This document shows positions 1-4,791 of a stretch of DNA of 10,071 nt, piece by piece. The notes below the pieces were generated by a model that was not told where the DNA came from, searched no databases, and worked only from the letters and a program-made list of their open reading frames with translations. Each line of letters opens with the position of its first letter. The stretch's first letter is position 1. Source of the DNA: Candidatus Hydrogenedentota bacterium (GTDB lineage Bacteria > Hydrogenedentota > Hydrogenedentia > Hydrogenedentales > SLHB01); NCBI GenBank assembly GCA_045863295.1, contig BTWA01000038.1, positions 48,327-58,397 on the forward strand. The letters run 5' to 3'. A program made the position numbers and the translations under genes.

Positions 1-1181
1 GGAAGTTCCTCCGGCACATCCACTTCGAGTATCACATTGGACTTGTCGAGCTTCTTTCGACTCAAAGACAAGACCACTTCCACAATGTCGCAGATCCGAG
101 CAGGACTGTGCCGCTCGCGGTCCTGACGAGAAAATGTCAAAAGACTATGCACAATCTTGGCAATGCGTTCCGCTTCGGACCGGATTAGCTTGGCAAATTG
201 ATGCTCTTTGGCACCGGAGTCCAATTCCTCAAGCAAAATATCTGCACAGTTGATTATGCCGTTAACAGGATTGTTGATTTCGTGCCCCACTCCTGCCGCA
301 AGCTCACCAATCGAAGCCAGCTTCGACGCCTGTATCACTTTGGTTTCCGCGTCGCGCCGCTCGATTGACTCTCCCAAGGCGCTGGCGACGGCCTGAACCA
401 AATCATGTTCCTCTTGGGAAAAGGCATCCTGGCCATTGGCAGGATCAACTTTGGAGTAGACTTCCACCGATCCGCGCTCGCGACCCGCAACAATTATCCT
501 GGAATTCAGGCGCCAGGGTGTCTGCTCCCAAGGATGGACAGTGAAAACCTCGCCGTCAAACGTCACCCGCGCGGTAATCGATTCGGGCTTGGAAAATGCA
601 GACATCAGCAACTCCACGACATCCTCAAAAATGTCAGACAGCATCTGCCTACCACGAATGCTCTCGCCAACCCGATAAAGACAGGTAACCTCAAGATTGC
701 GCTTATTCAGATCCTGCAGGAGACAATCTTTTTCTTCCTGAGCCTTCTTGCGGGCCGTAATGTCGTGCAAGATCCCGGTATAAACGCGCCGTTCACCAAG
801 TTGTACTTCACTTACTGAAAGTTCAAATGGGAACTGGGTACCGTCTTTACGCTTGCCTTCCAATTCGCGGATACTGCCAATAATGCGGGGAACGTGAGTC
901 TTGTGATACCGATCCAGATAGTGGTCATGGTCCCGACCATGTGGGTTCGGCATGAGCACATTGATTTTCTGGCCAATGAGCTCACCCGATTTATAGCCAA
1001 ACATACGATCCGCGGATGGATTCATATACTGCAATATACCGGTATCGTCAATGACGATAATTCCATCAACCGCACCTTCGACAATGGCAATAATCCAGGC
1101 ACCATCGTCCTTGGGAGAAAGGAATGGAAATGCCTCCCCCATCGACTTTTTCAAGCTTTTTGCCAGTTCTTCCGGACTCAA
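1..1181 (-). CDS. Sensor histidine kinase, FixL-like heme-PAS + GAF-like + HisKA (partial; 3' end with HATPase lies beyond the left edge)
   Basis: Not in the ORF track because there is no stop in the window. Manual translation of the minus frame is open from an upstream TAG (1197-1199) to the edge. Likely start is TTG at 1181 (AGGA 9 nt upstream); alternative is ATG at 1142. PAS ~1090-755: AVDGIIVIDDTGILQYMNPSADRMFGYKSGELIGQKINVLMPNPHGRDHDHYLDRYHKTHVPRIIGSIRELEGKRKDGTQFPFELSVSEV...TGILHDITARK. GAF-like segment ~710-350. H-box KLASIGELAAGVGHEINNPVNGI (His codon 282-284), then RIAKIVHSLLTFSR. Confidence 0.95.
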   Translation of the reverse strand, partial: MSPEELAKSLKKSMGEAFPFLSPKDDGAWIIAIVEGAVDGIIVIDDTGILQYMNPSADRMFGYKSGELIGQKINVLMPNPHGRDHDHYLDRYHKTHVPRIIGSIRELEGKRKDGTQFPFELSVSEVQLGERRVYTGILHDITARKKAQEEKDCLLQDLNKRNLEVTCLYRVGESIRGRQMLSDIFEDVVELLMSAFSKPESITARVTFDGEVFTVHPWEQTPWRLNSRIIVAGRERGSVEVYSKVDPANGQDAFSQEEHDLVQAVASALGESIERRDAETKVIQASKLASIGELAAGVGHEINNPVNGIINCADILLEELDSGAKEHQFAKLIRSEAERIAKIVHSLLTFSRQDRERHSPARICDIVEVVLSLSRKKLDKSNVILEVDVPEEL

Positions 1182-2211
1182 AATTGGAGTTCCTGTCTAC
1201 TAGGCCCCCTTGGACCGTGATCAAGCCCCCTGATCTCCGGTTCTTTTCCAAGGGTTCTGGGAGATATGAGTTAAGACACTATTGTACGCACAGCTATACA
1301 AAAGTGCAACAAGAATATTCAGAAAGCAGCGCCAGTGCGCTCCAAAGTCAGTACCTGTAACTGCATACAGGCGCGCAACTCATGTTATGTAAGTTGCACT
1401 TTGATTCGTCAGAACTCACCTGGGTTCAGCCCATGCAAACACAAAAGGAGATGGAAAACTCGGTATTTGCATTACAAAACTGGAAATTGTCAATGAATTA
1501 TTGTACGAAATACTACATTCTATTAGTATATATTTCGCTTATTTAATCAAAACAAAAAACGATGCACATTATACACTACATCGACTGGCCCTGAATCTGT
1601 CGTGCTGCTACTGTCTTGCTCAGTATAGTACCTAAAACACGATGAGTTATTTTTGTTAGGTATCATATAAAAACTCAATCAACAATACATCATGGTAATA
1701 ATATTATACATGTATTTTGGCACAAATTATCACTCAAGTGCCTATTATGTGCTGTCTCATCACACGGTAACCCCGGATGTCGAAGTTGTATCAGAGTCCA
1801 CACGGGGGTACGCCTGAGACCGGGTATGTCACACTGGATAATCGCCCCCCCATATCCTAACGGCTCAAATACATGTTTTATATAGTGTACCTACCGATGG
1901 TGCACTTCAATTCCGCTCGTAGAGCTCGAAGTCAAGTTGGCACCGCCCCGAAACTCTGACTGCCTTGCACTTGGTCACCAAAACCTTGAATAGGACCTGT
2001 CAAGTCGGACAAGAATTGTGTGGCTCTTGCACCAAAGTGAACCTGCGTCACGTGCGATTCGTAGCGCAGCTGAAAAGGAATAGTCTGTTGACAACCACCA
2101 AGTTCATCTCATGCGCTCTTAAGGCAGGCGCCATAGCGCGAACAAAATTCACCCAGACTATGATTTCAAGATTCCAGGCCATATTGAAACATAGAGAAAC
2201 GCATCTGTTGC

Positions 2212-2269
2212 GTGAAACAAAAAGAAGAGGCTCCGGCGATTCTCCCCCAAGAACCGCCGGAGCCTCTTC
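2212..2269 (-). terminator. Rho-independent terminator (minus strand)
   Basis: 20-bp stem 2224-2243/2250-2269 (19 Watson-Crick pairs plus one pair that is G-U on minus and A-C on plus), 6-nt loop UGGGGG, followed on minus by UUUUUGUUUC. Confidence 0.85.
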
Positions 2270-2352
2270 CAGAACCATCCCCGATTGCCCCCCAGCGAAT
2301 CGGGAACGATTGCGAACTCTACCGCGTCCCCCCAGATCACGACAAAGTCCGC
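2218..2352 (-). ncRNA. Candidate structured RNA: three tandem hairpins each capped by the hexaloop UGGGGG (sRNA or 3'-UTR-derived RNA; 5' end unknown)
   Basis: Hairpins at 2312-2352, 2278-2306 and 2224-2269, with loops at 2329-2334, 2289-2294 and 2244-2249 (ccccca on plus). Stems differ in sequence. The seven non-Watson-Crick stem pairs are all G-U on the minus strand. Ends in a terminator U-tract. Confidence 0.6.
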
Positions 2353-2361
2353 GAATGCCTA

Positions 2362-2549
2362 AACGGGGGTAGCTACGCTCAGTCCGAGACTCCCATTCAT
2401 CGGTCGTAGCTGCAAGGCTGTCCTGGTGACAAAGGTGGGATGTGAAGGCTCGGGTTGGTCGGACAGCGCTCTCGGACTGTAGTGGGTAGGGTTGGTCAGG
2501 CGTCCTACTGCGCTATCCTCGCCCCGGGTTGTGCGTCACTTCCCCCGTT
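2362..2549. repeat. 188-nt element bounded by 29-nt imperfect inverted repeats, with several competing internal stems (structured RNA or MITE-like remnant)
   Basis: 2362-2390 vs the reverse complement of 2521-2549: 21/29 identical, outer 8 nt perfect (AACGGGGG). Internal inverted repeats: cagtccgaga 2380-2389/2470-2479; gctgtcc 2417-2423/2461-2467; agctacg 2371-2377/2405-2411. Direct repeat gggttggtc at 2452 and 2489. Confidence 0.5.
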
Positions 2550-2559
2550 ATAAGGTGCG

Positions 2560-2922
2560 TTACGTTAAACTGTGGCTCAGCATACTATGCACGAGCTTGA
2601 TCAATTCGGGTCCATTTACCGGTTTCATGACGTAGGCACAATCATTCGCACCTAAGCCTGAAATCTTCGGGATGGCCCCTCCGGTCATTACGATGACCGG
2701 CATTTCAGGATACTCTCTCTTCAGAATCTGTACCGTTTGAAGTCCTGCCTGACCCGGCATCATTACATCCGTAATGACCAAGTCCGGCACCTTCGCGCGA
2801 CAGATGTCCACGCCTATACGACCATCTTCGGCGTCCCATACTTCATGTCCATCCCTTTCCAGGATGTGCCGAAAGGTCAATCGCAAGACGGGCTCGTCGT
2901 CGATCAACACGATTCGCGACAT
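2560..2922 (-). CDS. Single-domain response regulator (CheY-like receiver), 120 aa
   Basis: MSRIVLIDDEPVLR...PDLVITDVMMPGQAG...PVIVMTGG...YVMKPV: acidic pair, phospho-Asp, Thr and Lys-Pro all present, no output domain. Start set to ATG 2922 (GGAG 8 nt upstream) rather than the track's TTG 3009. Confidence 0.95.
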   Translation of the reverse strand: MSRIVLIDDEPVLRLTFRHILERDGHEVWDAEDGRIGVDICRAKVPDLVITDVMMPGQAGLQTVQILKREYPEMPVIVMTGGAIPKISGLGANDCAYVMKPVNGPELIKLVHSMLSHSLT

Positions 2923-3046: not shown

Positions 3047-3063
3047 TACAGGAACCGTGCCAA
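3047..3063 (-). promoter_or_regulatory. Candidate sigma54 (-24/-12) promoter for the response regulator
   Basis: Minus strand TTGGCACGGTTCCTGTA vs consensus YTGGCACGRNNNTTGCW: perfect -24 element, correct spacing, variant -12 (GT instead of GC). Confidence 0.5.
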
Positions 3064-3402: not shown

Positions 3403-4791
3403 CTATTCATGCGAAAGCATTTGAATCTCGGTCTCTGTAAGCGCACGTGACCAAAGAGCCGCTTCCTCCAGTTCCCCATGAAAGTGTCTGACAACGGCTC
3501 CTTGGTCGGTTTCCGCCGCGATGAGTACCGGCTCTGCGTTCTTGATCAGGTTTCCTGTCCACGGGCTGGAGGCCATCATTTCACCGTTGCAGTAGAGGCT
3601 CAAAGTCTGACCGTCGTAGCGTCCAACCAAGTCGAGCCACGCATCGGACGCAATCCGGGATGCGGGAAAGCTCACCATGGTAAAGCCTCGATCCGTACAA
3701 ACTTCAAAACCGATATTGCCAGTCCCGTCGCCGTCCAGGTCGGTGCTGAAAAGATTGAAATGCACCTGGTCATGCGATCCACGTTTCGCAAAGAGCGCGG
3801 CATTCCACGTGCCGCTGGGATCGCGCGCCCGTAGATAGGCGGTTATTGCAGAACCATCGGCATGCAAGTCGGGCCCCGCATCAAAGTAAGCGCCATCCAG
3901 CAGGACGACCTTAGCTCCGGGCTTCGCCCCCGGGCCCGCGGCACGCACGTTCAGCTGAATCTGGTCAAAAGCGGGCGTATGGCGTAGCGGCACTTTCGCA
4001 CCATGCCCACCCTCATCCAAGGGCCACCACGCCATGGCTGACTCAACCAAGGCTTTCCTTATACCACTCGAGTCGGGTACCTCGACGGGTTCCGCCGGTT
4101 TGAGCACCTTGACACGAATGTTTCGGAACTGGACCAAGGTAGGCGGCCCGCTGTGCAGTTGCAGGGCGAAAATGCCCTGCGGCTCGGCGCGCCGCGCGTC
4201 GGTGTCGCTGATGCTGGCCGCCAACCGGCCGTCGACGCGTAACGTGATGGAACCGCCGATACAGGTGAGATGATACTCGTGCCAATTCTCGAGCGAAAAC
4301 CAAGGGTCGCCCACGGCATCCGCCAAGGGCGTAGCCGTACGGTTGCCGCGAAGGTCAAAATCGGCGTGTTCGCCGCGCATGGCGAGGGTGTGCCGGCCGT
4401 ACTCGTCATACAAACGCACCAACCACGGCGTCTCCAAGTTGTTGTCCACTTGATATCCGCAAATGTCATGATCAGGCAGCAACCGGCTGCGAAACTGGAA
4501 TCCGTTGTTGATGCCCCCTTCCCCAGTCAGGCGTGATTCCAACTTGAGTTCAAAATCAGCGAGTTCCCCGCCTTCCCATACCAGGTACTGGTTCACCGTG
4601 CACGGATGTTCTTGCGTTATCCGCCCCGTGATGGCTCCGTCTTCGACAGTCCAATAGGATGCGTCTCCCGGTTGCCAGCCGTTCAACGTGCGCCCGTCGA
4701 AGATGGAGATGAAGCCTTCCTCCGCGGACGCACCCTGGGACATCCATACCAGAACCAAGAACAAGATCCGCGCGGCTTTGGGTGTGTTCAC
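3403..4791 (-). CDS. Secreted DUF1080 (3-keto-disaccharide hydrolase-like) domain protein with C-terminal LamG/ConA-like domain, 462 aa
   Basis: GTG start with GGAG 8 nt upstream; signal peptide MNTPKAARILFLVLVWMSQGASA. DUF1080 motifs FISIFDGRTLNGW, WTVEDGAITG, DFELKLE, NNGFQFRS, GYQVD, WHEYHLTC, GIFALQLHSG, VQFRNIRVK. LamG motifs WLDLVGRYDGQTLSLYCNG and FHGELEEAALWSRALTETEI. Confidence 0.92.
   Translation of the reverse strand: MNTPKAARILFLVLVWMSQGASAEEGFISIFDGRTLNGWQPGDASYWTVEDGAITGRITQEHPCTVNQYLVWEGGELADFELKLESRLTGEGGINNGFQFRSRLLPDHDICGYQVDNNLETPWLVRLYDEYGRHTLAMRGEHADFDLRGNRTATPLADAVGDPWFSLENWHEYHLTCIGGSITLRVDGRLAASISDTDARRAEPQGIFALQLHSGPPTLVQFRNIRVKVLKPAEPVEVPDSSGIRKALVESAMAWWPLDEGGHGAKVPLRHTPAFDQIQLNVRAAGPGAKPGAKVVLLDGAYFDAGPDLHADGSAITAYLRARDPSGTWNAALFAKRGSHDQVHFNLFSTDLDGDGTGNIGFEVCTDRGFTMVSFPASRIASDAWLDLVGRYDGQTLSLYCNGEMMASSPWTGNLIKNAEPVLIAAETDQGAVVRHFHGELEEAALWSRALTETEIQMLSHE

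Follow-up and report, generated by a model that had tools for sequence, protein, structure and literature searches.

A predicted structured RNA with repeated G5A motifs downstream of a response regulator gene in one family of Hydrogenedentota

Results

A predicted RNA of about 335 nt follows a response regulator gene

The DNA analysed here is a 10,071-nt stretch of a Candidatus Hydrogenedentota genome (assembly GCA_045863295.1, contig BTWA01000038.1, positions 48,327 to 58,397; hereafter the window, with positions counted from its first letter), and the subject of this study is a structured RNA predicted on its minus strand. On that strand, a sigma-54-type promoter-like element (TGGCACG-N4-CTGTA, 3047..3062) lies 140 nt upstream of the ATG of a gene for a 120-aa CheY-like single-domain response regulator (2560..2922, stop codon 2562-2560; Pfam Response_reg, E = 2.4e-21). 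Beyond the stop codon follow a conserved domain and three hairpins, H1 (2352-2312), H2 (2306-2278) and H3 (2269-2224; 2215..2270 with its tail). An earlier note on this DNA had proposed the hairpins, at 2218..2352, as a candidate non-coding RNA adjoining a single-domain response regulator. The regulator indeed consists of a receiver domain only. Comparison with relatives shows, however, that the hairpins are the variable 3' module, one third, of a single predicted non-coding RNA of ~335 nt (about 2549-2215, minus strand), so that the real unit is far larger than proposed and has its conserved part upstream, at 2549-2359. We regard it as very probable that this is a real and novel structured RNA.

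Folding of 2352-2215 recovered the layout described before: three minus-strand hairpins that each carry the loop UGGGGG (2334-2329 in H1, where GAC follows; 2294-2289 in H2; 2249-2244 in H3), with a 2-bp apical stem and a single 5' bulge shared by H1 and H2. The minimum free energy (MFE) of the region 2205-2400 is -99.4 kcal/mol on the minus strand, as compared to -72.1±4.4 kcal/mol for shuffled sequences (z = -6.2; 0 of 200 as low) and -70.3 kcal/mol on the plus strand. Each hairpin taken alone also favours the minus strand, as the earlier note had argued, with -20.7 vs -5.1 kcal/mol for H1, -15.0 vs -12.2 kcal/mol for H2 and -41.0 vs -34.9 kcal/mol for H3; H1 is much more stable on this strand because its stem contains five G-U pairs. 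In the ViennaRNA MFE structure, H1, H2 and H3 contain 6, 2 and 2 G-U pairs, respectively, and the program closes each UGGGGG loop by a U-G pair, leaving a GGGG tetraloop. Once these three closing pairs are set aside, 5+1+1 remain, matching the seven non-canonical stem pairs, all G-U, of the earlier note. H3 has the make-up of a strong intrinsic (Rho-independent) terminator: a stem of 20-21 bp, with 20 pairs (12 G-C) in the terminator assessment, and, directly 3' of it, the U-tract UUUUUGUUU (2223-2215). It is the sole terminator of the regulator-RNA unit, and a terminator occupies this position in all homologues, with compensatory changes in its stem.

A BLAST search with the hairpin region alone (2205-2400) gave no match among 40 relatives, as the hairpins are located downstream of the conserved part. 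Homologues were reached via synteny, moving from orthologues of the upstream regulator protein (48-66% identity, E <= 2e-29, 15 genomes of the family) to the DNA downstream of them. This DNA holds a long common block, the most conserved part of which lies upstream of H1-H3. With 2375-2560 as query, BLAST gave matches in 10 of the 53 other genomes of the family and in none of 79 genomes in the rest of the order. R1, a covariance model built from the 5' domain, scored the copy in the window with 152 bits (E = 2e-40) and returned 10 full-length matches among 135 genomes of the phylum, own genome included, at E = 1e-37 to 1e-52; 81 genomes outside the family gave none. The ~190-nt 5' domain is present in 11 of the 135 Hydrogenedentota genomes, which belong to four genera of one family, namely the own genus, g6 (5 of 6 genomes), g9 (2 of 3) and g12 (3 of 5). 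One g6 copy (G113) is truncated by a contig end, and in the g9 genome G118 the regulator sits at a contig end, leaving the position of the RNA out of view. An exact 20-mer of the RNA occurs in eight public records, seven of them metagenome-assembled genomes (MAGs) of Candidatus Hydrogenedentota, -tes or -tales and one a MAG titled uncultured Nitrospiraceae, and also in two metagenome contigs. A weak R1 match in G115 (E = 0.004) was dropped, as the sequence there reads as coding.

The 5' domain covaries around a near-invariant core

The conserved 5' domain (2359..2549, minus strand) is predicted to form a multi-helix fold enclosed by a long helix. The outer part of this helix, P1, pairs the 5' G-run AACGGGGG (2542..2549) with CCCCCGUU (2362..2369), the sole run of at least five C in the RNA. 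The central pair of P1 is G-C in five and A-U in four of nine distinct sequences. Inside the domain, two nested helices are capped by a conserved C-rich loop, which reads AACACCUACCU in 9 of 10 sequences and is longer in the own genome. A UCCCA:UGGGA helix is invariant and therefore offers no variation by which the pairing could be tested. The helices were derived from RNAalifold and from pair counts on alignment A2; the full-length alignment A1 holds 10 sequences in 370 columns. In the A2 structure of 40 pairs, 93% of cells are paired, as compared to 85.3±1.0% in shuffles, and 16 pairs show double changes, as compared to 7.2±1.6, with none of 500 shuffles reaching either value, although these statistics overstate the independent support because the homologous sequences are related. 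Control structures slid by 1-3 columns had 37-50% of cells paired. The compensatory changes are spread over three separate helices of the domain.

Between the helices lies a mostly unpaired core, AGCCUUCACAUCCCACCUUUGUCACCAGGACAGCCUUGCAGCUA (2407..2450), flanked by further near-invariant sequence. In all 10 sequences, representing the four genera, 43 of its 44 positions are identical, whereas the regulator protein is 48-66% identical.

A shorter RNA of ~230-250 nt, with a terminator of its own, is found 3' of regulator orthologues in the loci L030 (G012, genus g13) and L031 (G019, genus g20). Its P1 follows the same logic, with GGGGGGAC paired to GUCCCCCC, and it shows an unpaired CCUUCACCACCC..ACCGGAACAG stretch and a CCUUCAC..ACCC motif, without the G-loop module. 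It is probably a distant relative of the ~335-nt RNA, and we did not count it as a member because R1 does not score it. L030 also carries, ~300-440 nt 3' of the regulator, a very long near-perfect hairpin of GAACGAAG/GAACGAGG repeats, which gives spurious matches to R1 on both strands. In several g6 and g9 loci (L053, L052, L029/L058), short tandem repeats of AAATCCGAAAT or GGATTTTGGATTTTCG follow the RNA terminator.

G5A motifs are retained on changing 3' modules

We compared the 3' modules of 12 sequences, including two metagenome contigs. Across genera they can be aligned at the terminator only, yet the G-runs are kept. A GGGGG(G)A run stands right before the terminator in all 12 homologues; in the own genome, according to alignment A1, this run is the loop of H2, the 3' strand of which is supplied by a stretch found in that genome only. 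The terminator loop contains G5 in 10 of the 12 and lacks it in both g9 sequences. In the central hairpin, the counterpart of H1, seven of the 12 have a G-run followed by AC or AGAC; the own genome and g12 present it in the loop, three g6 genomes at the edge of the stem. Outside the own genus, the G5A motifs occupy loops, stem edges or linkers. Each RNA contains 2-5 runs of at least five G, as compared to 0.6-1.9 in dinucleotide shuffles, and an A follows 29 of the 32 G-runs. In g12, 5 of the 10 pairs of the outer stem, which encloses the central hairpin, are doubly changed, with GGGGGAC constant; the g6 3' module shows little variation, with double changes in three pairs.

The expectation that homologues would show conserved loops on covarying stems is therefore borne out for the G5A motif but not for the three-hairpin layout, which is confined to the own genome. 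The suggestion of G-quadruplex-forming loops is contradicted in part, given that one G-run is a strand of a covarying helix, where a G-to-A change is seen, and that g9 has too few runs.

The element is single-copy and matches no Rfam family

In the 6.3-Mb genome, the triple-loop pattern occurs once, at the H1-H3 locus, and the backward control does not occur. TGGGGG forms the loop of 15 of the 41,143 genome hairpins having a 6-nt loop and at least six uninterrupted pairs, and H3 alone among these 15 has a stem longer than 8 bp. A BLAST search of the own genome for a second copy of the element found none, with the next best match at E = 2. With one copy in the genome, a dispersed repeat like the repetitive extragenic palindromic (REP) elements could be ruled out. 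Across the window, TGGGGG is not enriched (6 matches vs 7.9±2.6 expected); five of the six are minus-strand matches located from 1136 to 2334. Across the order, the exact triple-loop pattern gave 10 matches in 7 other genomes as compared to 13 for the backward control, and it was found in 0 of the family's 53 other genomes, which is uninformative.

Rfam 15 returned 0 matches in the window at the gathering score, and a permissive scan of 1100-2700 gave noise alone (E >= 0.37), the best match being Cyano-2 with 15.8 bits against a threshold of 40, followed by three weaker ones; no Rfam family is matched here. The signal recognition particle RNA and 6S RNA, either of which might have been met here in disguise, were ruled out, both being located elsewhere in the genome. 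A literature search combining Hydrogenedentes or Hydrogenedentota with small RNA or RNA motif found no described regulatory RNA. As far as the Rfam and literature searches show, the RNA family is undescribed, and its range is narrow.

A predicted sigma-54-type promoter precedes the regulator-RNA unit

Comparison of the loci shows that the unit of regulator and RNA is preceded by a predicted sigma-54-type promoter. The sigma-54 consensus (TGGCACG-N4-TTGCW) is defined by a GG at -24 and a GC at -12, set at a fixed distance. The pattern TGGCACG-N4-[CG]TGC lies 173-177 nt upstream of the regulator ATG in 6 of 6 g6 and g9 loci and directly in front of the RNA in both regulator-less g12 loci (G011 and G108). 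It is thus present in 8 of 9 loci, the own locus reading TGGCACG-N4-CTGT. The sigma-54-type pattern is rare, with 16 occurrences on both strands of the genome, and rpoN is encoded in the genome.

In the own genome, P1 begins 12 nt after the regulator stop codon, and in g6 and g9 the open frame of the regulator continues into the 5' domain. Within g12, G110 has a regulator copy broken by five stop codons and then the RNA, and G011 and G108 have kept the RNA with neither a regulator orthologue nor a remnant of one upstream of it. The RNA outlives the loss of the regulator gene and should therefore have a function of its own. The genes 3' of the RNA are convergently oriented, with no relation between those of different genera (g6, URO-D-like; g9, MFS; g12, unknown or cytochrome-c-like), and the RNA is therefore not a leader; pdxH is found upstream in both g9 and g12. 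In the simplest reading of these arrangements, regulator and RNA would constitute one sigma-54-driven unit that ends at H3.

The regulator leader of g6 and g9 is itself conserved after the sigma-54-type element and contains, 32-57 nt before the regulator ATG, G5-6 runs (ACGGGGGAAUU, CACGGGGGGACU) that represent G5-6A motifs (L051, L052, L053, L055, L057, L058). Such motifs in the 5' untranslated region (UTR) would suit a single factor that acts at the two ends of the unit. The 5' UTR of the own genome, however, is without G5-6A motifs; its leader has no G5 runs and contains CUGGAUGG twice. A C-run ahead of the regulator start codon was considered and rejected.

Discussion

A regulatory RNA that may display G5A motifs to a partner

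Judged from the locus and its homologues, we rate the RNA as a bacterial regulatory RNA that would be co-transcribed with a signalling gene. Transcribed from the sigma-54 promoter, it would form the 3' part of the regulator mRNA, might afterwards be processed from it, and would act as a regulatory RNA of its own. The folded 5' domain may serve as a specific binding module and the G5A motifs as exposed, repeated contact sites for a candidate partner, most likely a protein that the RNA would titrate or scaffold; in the own genome, all three G5A motifs would have been moved into hairpin loops. Among all explanations considered, we tentatively favour a regulatory RNA that displays G5A motifs to a partner, and with at least the same reserve we would specify that it works by displaying these motifs to a protein. 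Both the highly constrained folded domain and the repeated, mostly exposed G5A motifs on changeable scaffolds favour a displayed-motif, protein-binding RNA, as does the combined lack of Hfq and of a long antisense match of the core: Hfq was not found in the genome, which is 96% complete, under conditions where control genomes did give matches. A more far-reaching version, which we consider doubtful, sees a new Hydrogenedentota-restricted class of sigma-54-controlled RNAs, in which the near-invariant 5' domain with its many junctions would bind a specific partner in the cell or a small molecule, and the G5A loops would recruit a G-run-recognising protein unrelated to CsrA.

Several observations weigh against a display of G5A motifs to a partner. 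The presentation of all three motifs in hairpin loops is limited to the own genome; in g6, the central G-run is largely within a stem, in g12 the pre-terminator G-run may pair weakly with the U-tract, and g9 retains one exposed G-run only. The near-invariant core is atypical of sponge RNAs, and GGA is not enriched, with 9-12 copies per RNA as compared to 7.9-12.2 in dinucleotide shuffles (z = -0.99 to +0.83). The genome's csrA adjoins fliW, and in Bacillus the CsrA-FliW arrangement uses a protein antagonist. The promoter copy of the own locus deviates from the consensus in having GT instead of GC at -12. Finally, the comparison comprises just 12 sequences from four genera, which are mutually related.

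The RNA could instead be a base-pairing riboregulator, in which the G-rich loops would serve as multiple seeds for C-rich sites, or the unpaired, invariant C/U-rich core would pair with purine-rich ribosome-binding regions of target mRNAs. The loops are exposed, as is the long unpaired invariant stretch, a terminator with a U-tail forms the 3' end, and known small RNAs (sRNAs) with C-rich loops use repeated identical loop motifs in this way. However, Hfq was not found in the nearly complete genome, and antisense matches to the 78-nt core at other places in the genome reach 12-14 nt at best, which is the chance level (E >= 1.3); a search of the genome for long antisense targets of the core found none. 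Moreover, G-rich seeds would hit C-rich sites rather than ribosome-binding sites, and a near-invariant block of 44 nt far exceeds the length of a seed. We therefore think base-pairing unlikely, while giving it more weight than the remaining alternatives. The P1-closed multi-helix junction with its invariant unpaired nucleotides resembles riboswitch aptamers, and every 3' G5A motif has the same sequence as the P1 5' strand and could take its place opposite the single C-run. On this basis, the RNA might be a sensor or a conformational switch, with an aptamer-like 5' domain and a C-run that pairs with either the 5' G-run or a 3' G5A motif and so sets the shape or stability of the RNA. Such a switch is improbable, as there is no regulated gene downstream, the alternative pairings do not overlap the main terminator stem, the swap of the C-run is without covariation support, and the change of P1 to GGGAGG:CCUCCC in three g6 genomes is not matched in the 3' runs.

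We consider it similarly improbable that the RNA is merely a cis-acting 3' UTR of the regulator mRNA, consisting of a terminator and protective hairpins that share their loops incidentally. The start 12 nt after the stop codon, the regulator frame extending into the 5' domain in g6 and g9, and the role of H3 as the only terminator of the unit all suit a 3' UTR, but RNA and promoter are kept where the regulator is lost or broken, the 5' domain combines covariation with a near-invariant core, and the G5A motifs are conserved on varying stems. A small protein gene was weighed as well, since frame 0 across the core reads ...QPKPSHPTFVTRTALQLRP..., is open in all 10 sequences and has an in-frame ATG in 7 of them. 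Yet the other frames are just as open, three of the 10 sequences, including the own genome, lack any in-frame start codon (ATG, GTG or TTG) ahead of the core, the conserved loop falls into a different frame in G011, and the flanks vary in length and sequence. The core is also without synonymous variation next to a protein of far lower identity, and the variable positions form compensatory RNA pairs, which makes a protein gene very improbable. As to a chance cluster of palindromes or a REP-like dispersed repeat, the absence of TGGGGG enrichment in the window overall and the order-wide matches being no commoner than the backward control (10 vs 13) would agree with it; we give this virtually no credence, given that the element is single-copy and is located at the conserved 3' end of an RNA family that covaries and has its G-runs in corresponding places.

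Comparison with known systems

The displayed-motif RNA that we favour can be compared to CsrB, RsmY and RsmZ, which are among the analogues named in the earlier note. Like these, it is a few hundred nucleotides long, ends in a terminator, is linked to a two-component gene and repeats a short G-containing motif (GGGGGA contains GGA) in loops or linkers on variable stems. In contrast to them, its GGA density is that of shuffles (9-12 per ~320 nt), its 5' domain is large, invariant and covarying, its loop A is usually paired, and it has no Rfam match. As CsrA-titrating sRNAs are marked by densely spaced, mostly unpaired GGA motifs, the GGA density speaks against this class. CsrA is encoded in the genome and in 51 of the 54 family genomes, a far wider distribution than that of the RNA. 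In the own genome (G000:C46:29822-32977, L071), fliW (PF02623, E = 5e-33) lies directly upstream of, and overlaps, csrA (PF02599, E = 5e-26), a neighbourhood that, by these domain matches, is the arrangement of flagellar partners; a second, weak CsrA-like frame is present on contig C88.

The Vibrio Qrr sRNAs are ~100 nt long, Hfq-dependent and transcribed alone beside an NtrC-type regulator. The RNA described here shares with them the sigma-54-type promoter, a response-regulator neighbour and a long stretch that is invariant across species, but it differs in its length of ~335 nt, its complex fold, the CheY-like regulator and the lack of a detected Hfq. sRNAs derived from 3' UTRs, such as CpxQ, are short, Hfq-bound seed RNAs. 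With these it has in common a terminator shared with an upstream protein gene and a start at or inside the 3' end of that gene, whereas processing is predicted here at most, and in g12 the RNA is a stand-alone unit.

Among sRNAs, sX13 and the cuckoo RNAs repeat C-rich loops. To our knowledge, the mirror image of this, a repeated G-rich loop motif, is matched by none of the sRNA classes. For the 6C sRNA, the account of its loops in PMC6486639 describes a repeated identical C-rich loop motif serving base-pairing. The likeness to 6C, sX13 and cuckoo RNAs is one short homopolymer-like motif in several hairpin loops on unrelated stems, and the difference is that the loops here are G-rich and would not pair with Shine-Dalgarno sequences; an Rfam match is lacking here as well.

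ANTAR target RNAs, according to the motif description in PMC3369931, have dual hexaloop hairpins before a terminator, in which loop position 1 is A and position 4 is G. Measured by this description, the tandem small hexaloop hairpins just upstream of an intrinsic terminator and the G at loop position 4 are found here too, but position 1, where A is required (PMC3369931), is U in all three hairpins. In addition, the second hairpin of ANTAR targets has sequence in common with the 5' strand of the terminator and controls a gene downstream, whereas H2 (2306-2278) and H3 (2270-2224) do not overlap; no regulated gene lies downstream here, and the adjacent regulator has a receiver domain only. Loop position 1, hairpin overlap and downstream gene all speak against an ANTAR target RNA. 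The ANTAR domain PF03861 gave no match in the genome, but none in 14 control genomes either.

Significance

Hydrogenedentota have no cultured model, and the RNA offers a well-defined biochemical candidate in this unstudied phylum. Several of its features are unusual: a ~190-nt covarying fold, a 44-nt core that is near-invariant across genera although the neighbouring protein is just about 60% identical, and a conserved sigma-54-type promoter, to which the g12 genomes add a natural experiment, having lost the protein gene but kept the RNA. The level of constraint makes a specific molecular partner likely. If the more far-reaching version outlined above is true, the RNA would stand for a new system of titration or scaffolding between RNA and protein, linked to two-component signalling. 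The immediate reach of the RNA family is limited by its narrow distribution over four genera.

Further features of the window and genome

Downstream of the RNA, a histidine kinase with a PAS followed by a HisKA domain is encoded on the minus strand (3-1181), in a frame that runs off the window. Its PAS domain aligns to the haem-binding domain of FixL (1dp6) over 117 residues (E = 1.7e-27), in keeping with the putative oxygen-sensing kinase that had been noted nearby, and a receiver-like match is found just past the window edge (G000:C38:47549-47875); the protein is probably a hybrid oxygen-sensing kinase, as far as these domain matches indicate. The kinase lies 1 kb downstream of the RNA terminator and neighbours the RNA in the own genome only, the other genera having unrelated convergent genes in its place. 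It therefore cannot define the role of the family, and the proposed RNA arm of an oxygen-responsive circuit is not a family property.

The ~1 kb between RNA terminator and kinase (1182-2214) is without a convincing open reading frame, has a GC content of 0.36 at 1401-1800 and gave no Rfam matches. A search of this spacer for a second copy of the RNA yielded just a weak P1-like R1 match (1798-1858, E = 0.022), where a G7 run at ~1852-1846 could pair with a C5 run at ~1808-1804; the region 1700-2000 showed no unusual structure (z = +0.7). Around the kinase leader and start (1136-1240, minus strand) there are three more G5 runs, GAUCAGGGGGCUUGAUC, which forms a small hairpin, CAAGGGGGCC and AUGGGGGAGG. 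The leader hairpin with its G5 loop was rejected as a structured element, its fold not being significant (z = -1.4).

Upstream of the regulator unit, the minus strand encodes, as identified by domain searches, a 462-aa protein with 3-keto-disaccharide hydrolase (DUF1080) and LamG-like domains (3403-4791) and a 1723-aa protein with NHL repeats, a PPC domain and a stretch resembling peptidase C13 (4842-10013). Elsewhere in the genome, a G-rich stretch on the plus strand (G000:C13:27685-27878) contains four TGGGGG, followed by a terminator-like hairpin, GGCCGCAGCC...GGCTGCGGCC, and TTTTT; it may represent another small RNA.

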